From a virus, in UHGV virus genome UHGV-0036483: a stretch of DNA of 54,587 nucleotides; one strand, given 5' to 3'. Position numbers and translations under genes: made by a program. Below, piece after piece: positions 12,676 to 12,758 of the stretch (its first letter is position 1; the number at the start of each line of letters is the position of its first letter). The notes under the pieces were generated by a model. The model saw only the letters and a list, made by a program, of their open reading frames with translations, was not told where the DNA came from and did no database searches.

Positions 12676-12704
12676 TTGTAGAGCGTAAACAAACAGATTA
12701 AAAT
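12676..12704 (+). promoter_or_regulatory. putative late promoter (PR'-like): -35 TTGTAG, 17-bp spacer, -10 TAAAAT
   Basis: Sigma70-like hexamers with 17-bp spacing ~30 bp upstream of an intrinsic terminator and the holin gene. Confidence 0.4.
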
Positions 12705-12731
12705 ATTACCTAACAATGCGAAATTGTAATT

Positions 12732-12758
12732 ACCCGGCCCCGCGCCGGGTTTTTGCTT
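12732..12758 (+). terminator. intrinsic terminator (tR'-like) immediately upstream of holin
   Basis: ACCCGGC-CCCGC-GCCGGGT hairpin followed by TTTTTGCTTTG. Confidence 0.7.

Follow-up and report, generated by a model that had tools for sequence, protein, structure and literature searches.

The window analyzed here is the whole 54,587-nt DNA of UHGV virus genome UHGV-0036483, read on one strand from 5' to 3'. The first sizeable noncoding gap ahead of its late genes (12668-12774) holds two promoter-like hexamers, a short conserved sequence and a terminator hairpin, and ends at the start codon of a holin gene. The features needed below are listed in order of position.

~5929 (~5921-5965), + strand: boxA-type nut motif with boxA and boxB, equivalent to nutR2
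7367-8089, + strand: Q antiterminator gene, 240 aa, lambda-Q family (PF03589, E = 4.3e-30)
12676-12681, + strand: proposed -35 hexamer TTGTAG, weak and not conserved (3/6 matches to TTGACA)
12687-12698, + strand: candidate Q-binding element AAACAAA(C/T)(A/G)GAT, the conserved part of the spacer (10/12 positions invariant or nearly so in 43 relatives)
12699-12704, + strand: -10 hexamer TAAAAT (5/6 consensus match; invariant in 43 distinct relatives)
12710-12717, + strand: candidate sigma-dependent pause element CTAACAAT, with core AACAAT at 12712-12717 and an invariant GCGAAA after it, to 12723
12732-12759, + strand: intrinsic terminator, a 7-bp stem (6 G-C) with a 5-nt loop, then TTTTTGCTTT (from scan, folding and conservation)
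12763-12767, + strand: Shine-Dalgarno GGAGG of the holin gene, read from the sequence and almost invariant in relatives
12775-12975, + strand: holin, 66 aa, ATG at 12775, first gene of the late unit (PF16080, E = 1.6e-14)
12976-13467, + strand: endolysin, a phage lysozyme (PF00959, E = 2.7e-44)
13455-13925, + strand: Rz spanin (PF03245, E = 5.3e-25)
13645-13857, + strand: +1-frame ORF embedded in Rz, from the ORF list
15572-16057 and 16054-17538, + strand: terminase-like ORFs, followed by further large + strand ORFs
~51855 (~51800-51863), - strand: boxA-type nut motif, equivalent to nutL
52075-52668: repressor gene, an mEpimmI landmark
~52872 (~52864-52920), + strand: boxA-type nut motif, equivalent to nutR1
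53175-53462: gene for Gp17, an N-like antiterminator (97% identical to mEp021 Gp17)

An earlier note on this DNA had described a promoter with a strong intrinsic terminator close behind it, directly upstream of a holin gene. Every base it quoted (TTGTAG, TAAAAT, the hairpin, GGAGG and the holin ATG at 12775) was found where it had placed it, and the holin assignment is confirmed by the PF16080 match, with the Shine-Dalgarno sequence as described.

Genes for lysis, packaging and structure lie downstream of the element on the same strand, as in a lambda-Q-type cassette. The ORF embedded in Rz, with its lipobox-like LSGC, is presumably Rz1. The N-terminus of the endolysin (12976-13060) resembles a signal-anchor-release (SAR) segment, its partner being a small class II holin. 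Very small hydrophobic ORFs of ~40-70 aa each occupy 14790-15560, within the 780 bp between a 194-aa ORF past the lysis genes and the small terminase gene.

The phage group and its displaced Q gene

The window is a complete, circularly permuted genome of an mEp021-like (mEpimmI) temperate coliphage, because the landmark genes and all three nut motifs are present. The group's boxA, which reads GCTCTTTAAAAA(T/C)CCGG, occurs at each of the three nut sites. The region around the element shares 89-95% identity with the Mexican E. coli phages mEp021, mEp010, mEp013, mEp044, mEp515 and mEp554 and with MagusPhagus. The mEpimmI phages are a recently defined group of temperate, Nus-dependent, non-lambdoid coliphages, as common as lambdoid phages in human gut samples, and Gp17-dependent antitermination is established in mEp021 (PMC11893012). 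Early antitermination through Gp17 and nut has been studied already in this group, but its late switch has not been mapped; the GenBank records and the searchable papers mention neither a late promoter nor a pause element or Q site in these phages.

The Q protein belongs to the family that PF03589 defines, that of lambda Q (PMC9388147). It matches the solved lambda Q structure (7ubm_Q; phmmer, E = 4.1e-39) over residues 1-114 and 148-238; residues 115-147 (7709-7807) form a 33-aa insertion relative to lambda Q, with an extra CxxC...CxxC motif. Longer versions of this insertion occur in the Q proteins of phi80, HK225 and SEN22-type phages. Across an alignment of this Q with those of lambda, phi80, HK225, SEN22, ES2 and EhrS_59 (alignment A2), the Zn-ligand cysteines, G39 and the C-terminal T do not vary. 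Two genes past Q, an ORF of 135 aa (8216-8623) has a weak match to the DnaJ-type CXXCXGXG zinc finger.

A lambda-family Q is thus encoded in the same genome as the element. Q genes of this kind are described as "followed by" their regulated unit (PMC9388147), but here the gene does not stand immediately before it: ~4.6 kb separate the Q stop codon at 8089 from the -35 at 12676, a distance of 1.9-6.7 kb in relatives and of only 4-42 nt in 66 lambdoid comparators. Q and the ORF that follows it overlap at the Q stop codon, leaving no intergenic gap there.

The intervening DNA (8090-12667) holds about twenty tightly packed small ORFs, hypervariable and mosaic (pi about 0.4-0.5 where measured), in an array that spans 1.9-6.7 kb in relatives. 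The array has the look of a landing pad for accessory genes, inserted between Q and the site where Q presumably loads. Inside the array, at 9696-9725 on the + strand, lies a second strong terminator-like hairpin, AAGCGGGATAAAACCCGCTT followed by TTTTTGTTCG; in mEp010 a terminator (T8) is annotated in that phage's own small-ORF array, upstream of the holin gene.

Conservation of the gap and its terminator

Two sets of relatives were gathered, 12 phages and prophages (alignment A1) and 46 IMG/VR loci identified by their Q protein; removal of duplicates left 43 distinct sequences spanning the element. Across 12687-12774, pi is 0.056 and 65 of 88 positions are invariant. Third codon positions have a pi of 0.148 in the holin gene and 0.226 in the endolysin gene, so that variability in the noncoding element is 3-4 times lower than at synonymous sites in the genes beside it. 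Upstream of 12687 the relatives carry mosaic, barely alignable small-ORF alleles (pi = 0.41), and diversity drops abruptly at that position. Invariant runs include AAACAA (12687-12692), GATTAAAATA (12696-12705), CTAACAATGCGAAA (12710-12723), both hairpin arms and the T-run. The -10, the pause-like element and the terminator are under selection.

Homology breakpoints fall at 12662 and 12687, where megablast matches to E. coli prophages start; the second is a mosaic joint at the left edge of the candidate Q site. On the other side, two IMG/VR loci (L033 and L054) encode a holin that is 55% identical in protein, yet their -10, pause element and terminator are nearly unchanged. The element behaves as a module that survives replacement of either flank. 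The Shine-Dalgarno sequence and start context also differ in these two loci (~12880-13200 in L033, ~12750-13070 in L054).

The element is confined to this phage group and co-occurs with the group's Q: 46 loci were recovered through Q and 48 through the element, almost all on the same contigs. Viral contigs searched with the element returned only the same group. Among genome contigs, a first pattern gave 0 matches and a looser one gave 5, in unrelated taxa and in line with the chance expectation; no second copy was found elsewhere in the window.

The hairpin pairs ACCCGGC (12732-12738) with GCCGGGT (12744-12750) around the loop CCCGC, and TTTTTGCTTT follows. It ranks first in a terminator scan over 10 kb (7 pairs, 6 G-C), and the RNA of 12712-12758 folds at -18.1 kcal/mol (z = -3.05), an energy reached by none of 200 shuffled sequences. 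Both stem arms and the T-run are invariant in the 43 distinct relatives. The loop is variable (CCCGC, ACCGC, CACGC, CCAGC or CCCGT), the expected pattern if only the stem matters. The same site is annotated in GenBank as a terminator in mEp021 (TERM_5, score 100) and in mEp010 (T9, ARNold), and a terminator is all that the records of relatives mark here. "t5", which may or may not correspond to TERM_5, is among the experimentally shown terminators in the legend of Figure 7 of the mEpimmI study (PMC11893012).

The hairpin and T-run are a real and strongly conserved intrinsic terminator, beyond what chance would give, and the earlier note's description of it as strong is borne out by its scan rank, folding, invariant stems and annotation in mEp021 and mEp010. 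As in lambda-Q-type cassettes, it stands between the pause element and the late genes.

The candidate promoter region and its lambdoid counterparts

The promoter of the earlier note, TTGTAG and TAAAAT across a 17-bp spacer, fared unevenly. Its -10 is invariant in the relatives and fits a matrix built from lambdoid sites (below), but its -35 matches the consensus at only three of six positions and exists as four alleles in the 43 relatives (TTGTAG, TTGTGG, TTGTAT and TCGCGC). The last of these occurs in 12 of the 43, leaving about a quarter of relatives without any -35, and T12676 and G12678 are the only invariant positions in the hexamer. Together the two hexamers match at 8 of 12 consensus positions, which is not above chance for the hexamers alone. 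A promoter scan did not report 12676-12704, and no extended -10 is present at TAAAAT; the -10 is supported through its context, not through its hexamer match.

Nor did relatives that have the -35-less allele or a longer gap show a stronger + strand promoter close by. Other registers within 12690-12731 (TTACCT/TGTAAT and the like), checked by hand, were discarded because they have spacers of 13 or 21 nt or would start inside the terminator stem. The predicted promoter may be weak, or may even lack promoter function, because the -35 is weak and replaceable and an extended -10 is absent, whereas all 64 comparators described below have a good -35.

The DNA site bound by lambda Q is 13 bp long and lies in the promoter region (PMC9388147), and the GenBank record of phi80 places the Q site between the -35 and the -10. 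The corresponding candidate in the window is AAACAAA(C/T)(A/G)GAT at 12687-12698, for which a Q-binding role is suggested by its position and conservation. To locate the site, we asked whether the Q allele (240 or 242 aa) changes together with the upstream allele of the element and found no co-variation; since Q shows no such link to the part upstream that varies, any Q site should fall in the invariant AAACAAA..GAT. Comparison of the spacer with those of lambda, phi80, HK225 and SEN22 revealed no similarity to known or presumed Q-binding elements.

The earlier note overlooked CTAACAAT, which by sequence and position corresponds to the sigma-dependent pause element where lambda-family Q loads. 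TAAAAT, ATTACCT and AACAAT follow one another, with CTAACAAT 7 nt past the -10, and the 14-nt run at 12710-12723 (CTAACAATGCGAAA) that includes it is invariant in the 43 relatives. Transcription is predicted to start at 12711/12712, which, at the sequence level, would put this -10-like sequence at about +1 to +6. It matches the pause elements of lambda (AACGAT, +1 to +6), of phi80 (CTAACGCT) and of SEN22 and ES2 (CTAACAGT, one base different from CTAACAAT), and of 64 lambdoid cassettes in total.

These comparators were taken from the DNA past the Q stop codon at 66 loci with a lambda-family Q, ~60 of which encode a Q at 36-41% identity to the one in the window; the rest are lambda, phi80, HK225, SEN22, ES2 and EhrS_59. 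All 64 distinct regions have a good -35 starting 4-42 nt past the Q stop, and in all 64 a -10 is followed after 4-8 nt by yyAAy(G/A)nT (e.g., CTAACGAT, CTAACAGT, CTAACACT and CCAATGAT). The terminator stem begins 25-48 nt past the pause element in 59 of the 64, giving RNAs of ~57-76 nt. In the window it begins 20 nt past the pause element, the shortest such distance (~20 nt) among the 65 cassettes examined, and the predicted terminated RNA of ~45 nt is likewise the shortest. Its length is no objection, because short terminated RNAs (~57-76 nt) are the rule in this Q family.

Matrices for the -10 and a 13-nt pause element, at a spacing of 4-8, were trained only on 38 distinct lambdoid sites and used to scan both strands of the window. 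The single best match in the 54.6 kb is at 12699 on the + strand, the -10 and pause element just described, with 18.8 bits; the next independent match reaches 12.5 bits. Within the 107-nt gap, 1.7e-4 matches of that score are expected. The score is not exceptional genome-wide, as 14.5% of random 54.6-kb sequences reach 18.8 bits somewhere.

The PR'-qut-tR' region of lambda, source of the 6S RNA, is served by a Q of the same family (PF03589; E = 4e-39 between the window's Q and the lambda Q structure). Its -10 is TAAATT, and AACGAT lies 6 nt beyond, at +1 to +6, just as AACAAT lies past the -10 in the window, and in both phages an intrinsic terminator stands upstream of holin, endolysin and Rz genes. 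The differences lie in the -35, which in lambda is strong (TTGACT) and starts 42 nt past the Q stop but in the window is TTGTAG, or absent in relatives, and 4.6 kb past it; in the Q protein, which in lambda lacks the zinc-ribbon-like insertion; and in the terminated RNA, 194 nt at the first lambda terminator against a predicted ~45 nt.

Closest to the window's Q outside its own group (36-41% identity) are the Q proteins of phi80, HK225, SEN22/P22-like and ES2-type phages, which also have the CxxC insertion. Their pause elements, CTAACGCT, CCAACGAT or CTAACAGT, lie 4-7 nt past the -10, and the phi80 record in GenBank annotates a pR' -35, the Q site, the -10 and the terminator. In these phages, unlike in the window, Q lies immediately upstream, at 4-42 nt, and the -35 is good (TTTACT, TTTACA, TTGCAA or TTGCAT). 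Their terminators are 25-48 nt past the pause element, with RNAs of ~57-76 nt, compared with 20 nt in the window, and their spacers, the presumed Q-binding elements, are unrelated to the window's AAACAAACAGAT. The Q21 and Q82 cassettes (PF06530 and PF06323) follow the same logic of promoter, sigma-dependent pause, terminator and late genes (PMC9388147), but those proteins belong to unrelated families with another mode of DNA binding, and the window's Q falls in neither.

A probable lambda-type late switch and competing readings

For a lambda-family Q to load, a complex containing sigma must be paused at a -10-like element (SDPE) just past a promoter with a Q-binding element, and a terminator lies downstream (PMC9388147). 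The presence of such a Q, the order of -10, pause element and terminator shared with the 64 lambdoid cassettes, and the top-ranking matrix match at 12699 all agree with the PR'-tR' layout proposed in the earlier note. On this evidence 12676-12759 is probably (about 70%, in our estimate) the late-gene regulatory cassette, PR'-tR'-like, of an mEpimmI phage.

From the conserved arrangement we infer promoter activity, a start site, pausing, the identity of the Q-binding site and Q-dependent read-through, which would combine as follows. Sigma-70 RNA polymerase would start at ~12711/12712 from TAAAAT with little help from the -35, and sigma region 2 would bind again at the -10-like AACAAT (+1 to +6), halting the polymerase ~16 nt into the transcript. 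Without Q, the polymerase would leave the pause and terminate at the hairpin and U-run, releasing an RNA of ~45 nt. With Q bound to the promoter DNA, probably at the invariant AAACAAA..GAT in the spacer, the protein would load onto the paused complex and, together with NusA, form a nozzle on the RNA exit channel that blocks hairpin formation. The modified polymerase would then pass this and later terminators and transcribe the lysis, packaging and structural genes. The 5' arm of the hairpin begins at +21, which is compatible with loading of Q, because Q loads when the RNA is ~15-16 nt long (PMC9388147). Gp17-modified early transcripts from nutR2 (~5929) would probably also reach and pass the terminator, as in lambda.

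That last route could in principle be the only one. The hairpin would then simply end the delayed-early rightward operon (nutR2, nin-like genes, Q and the small ORFs), late genes would be reached only by Gp17-modified polymerase, and the conserved bases would be the 5' leader of the lysis module. Such a terminator without a promoter would suit the weak or absent -35, the failure of the scan to find a promoter here or in relatives, and the GenBank records, which annotate just a terminator. The genome also has a Gp17 homologue and, at ~5929 on the strand of the element, a nutR2-like boxA and boxB, and Gp17-dependent antitermination is established in mEp021 (PMC11893012). The Gp17 N/nut system thus shares genome and strand with the element and likely acts on the same terminator for transcription from upstream, but it needs boxA and boxB as RNA, and the element has neither: boxA is absent here, and the small hairpin is not maintained. 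This reading also leaves unexplained why 14 noncoding pause-like bases and, seven bases upstream, a -10 are invariant. It would deprive a conserved, apparently intact lambda-family Q of a loading site, in a family that loads on promoter-proximal paused sigma complexes (PMC9388147). We regard it as unlikely, though not negligible.

Considerably less probable is a Q-dependent promoter right after the Q gene, at 8072-8112 (GTTACA, 16 nt, TAAGCT, 7 nt, AACGAT), with the terminator at 12732 as a distant tR' and the small ORFs inside the unit. An exact lambda-type AACGAT does lie 18 nt past the Q stop, with a -10-like hexamer 7 nt upstream and a -35-like one (GTGACA in most relatives) 16 nt further, and the position fits the 4-42 nt rule of the comparators. 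But the sequence is wholly coding: GTnACn corresponds to the family-invariant V-T codons at the C-terminal end of Q, and AACGAT to the N-D codons of the ORF that follows. Its -10 matches at only three of six positions, the motif is lost at about 7 loci with a different downstream ORF allele, it is not among the top matrix matches, and no terminator follows within 200 nt. The invariance of 12687-12731 would again be left unexplained. Overlapping the Q stop and the beginning of the following ORF, this look-alike probably results from the V-T-R and N-D codons.

We give the least credence to the idea that the conserved bases act as RNA, either through a boxB-like hairpin, ACAAU-GCGAA-AUUGU (12714-12728), serving as an extra Gp17 nut site, or as a small regulatory RNA: the bases can be drawn as a stem of 5 bp closed by a GNRA-like pentaloop, the boxB of mEp021 nutL has a GCGA(A) loop and weak sub-threshold Rfam matches overlap the region, but the pattern of variation largely refutes the boxB form. 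The 5' arm is invariant, and the 3' arm carries uncompensated changes (T12724 to C in 16/43 and to G in 1/43, G12726 to A in 1/43), which disrupt the ACAAT/ATTGT stem in at least 17 of the 43 relatives; boxA (GCTCTTTAAAAA) is absent from 12660-12775, leaving neither part of a nut site, and the minimum-energy fold omits the hairpin. Every Rfam score falls far short of its gathering threshold (26.5 bits against 55 for the rnk leader and 16.6 against 47 for CyaR).

The lambda-type late switch is a textbook mechanism. What is new in this case is organizational: the Q gene is displaced, the pause element and terminator lie closer together than in any other of the 65 cassettes, and the -35 is degenerate. 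A bolder extension, which we think rather improbable, is that mEpimmI phages have uncoupled the loading site of a lambda-type Q from the gene for Q as well as from a canonical -35, and that initiation may need a phage factor, or Q itself, through its zinc-ribbon insertion, may replace the contact between sigma region 4 and the -35. If Q does replace that contact, it would be an initiation activator as well as an antiterminator, working at a tandem pair of -10 and -10-like elements.

For mEpimmI phages, this analysis confines the predicted late promoter, the candidate pause element and the terminator to a stretch of about 85 bp. That stretch offers a precise target for asking how their late genes are turned on, how a lambda-family Q works kilobases from its gene and how near to the pause a terminator may sit. 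The reading favored here, a lambda-type late switch, would extend a textbook mechanism to a new phage group and is not a new mechanism in itself.
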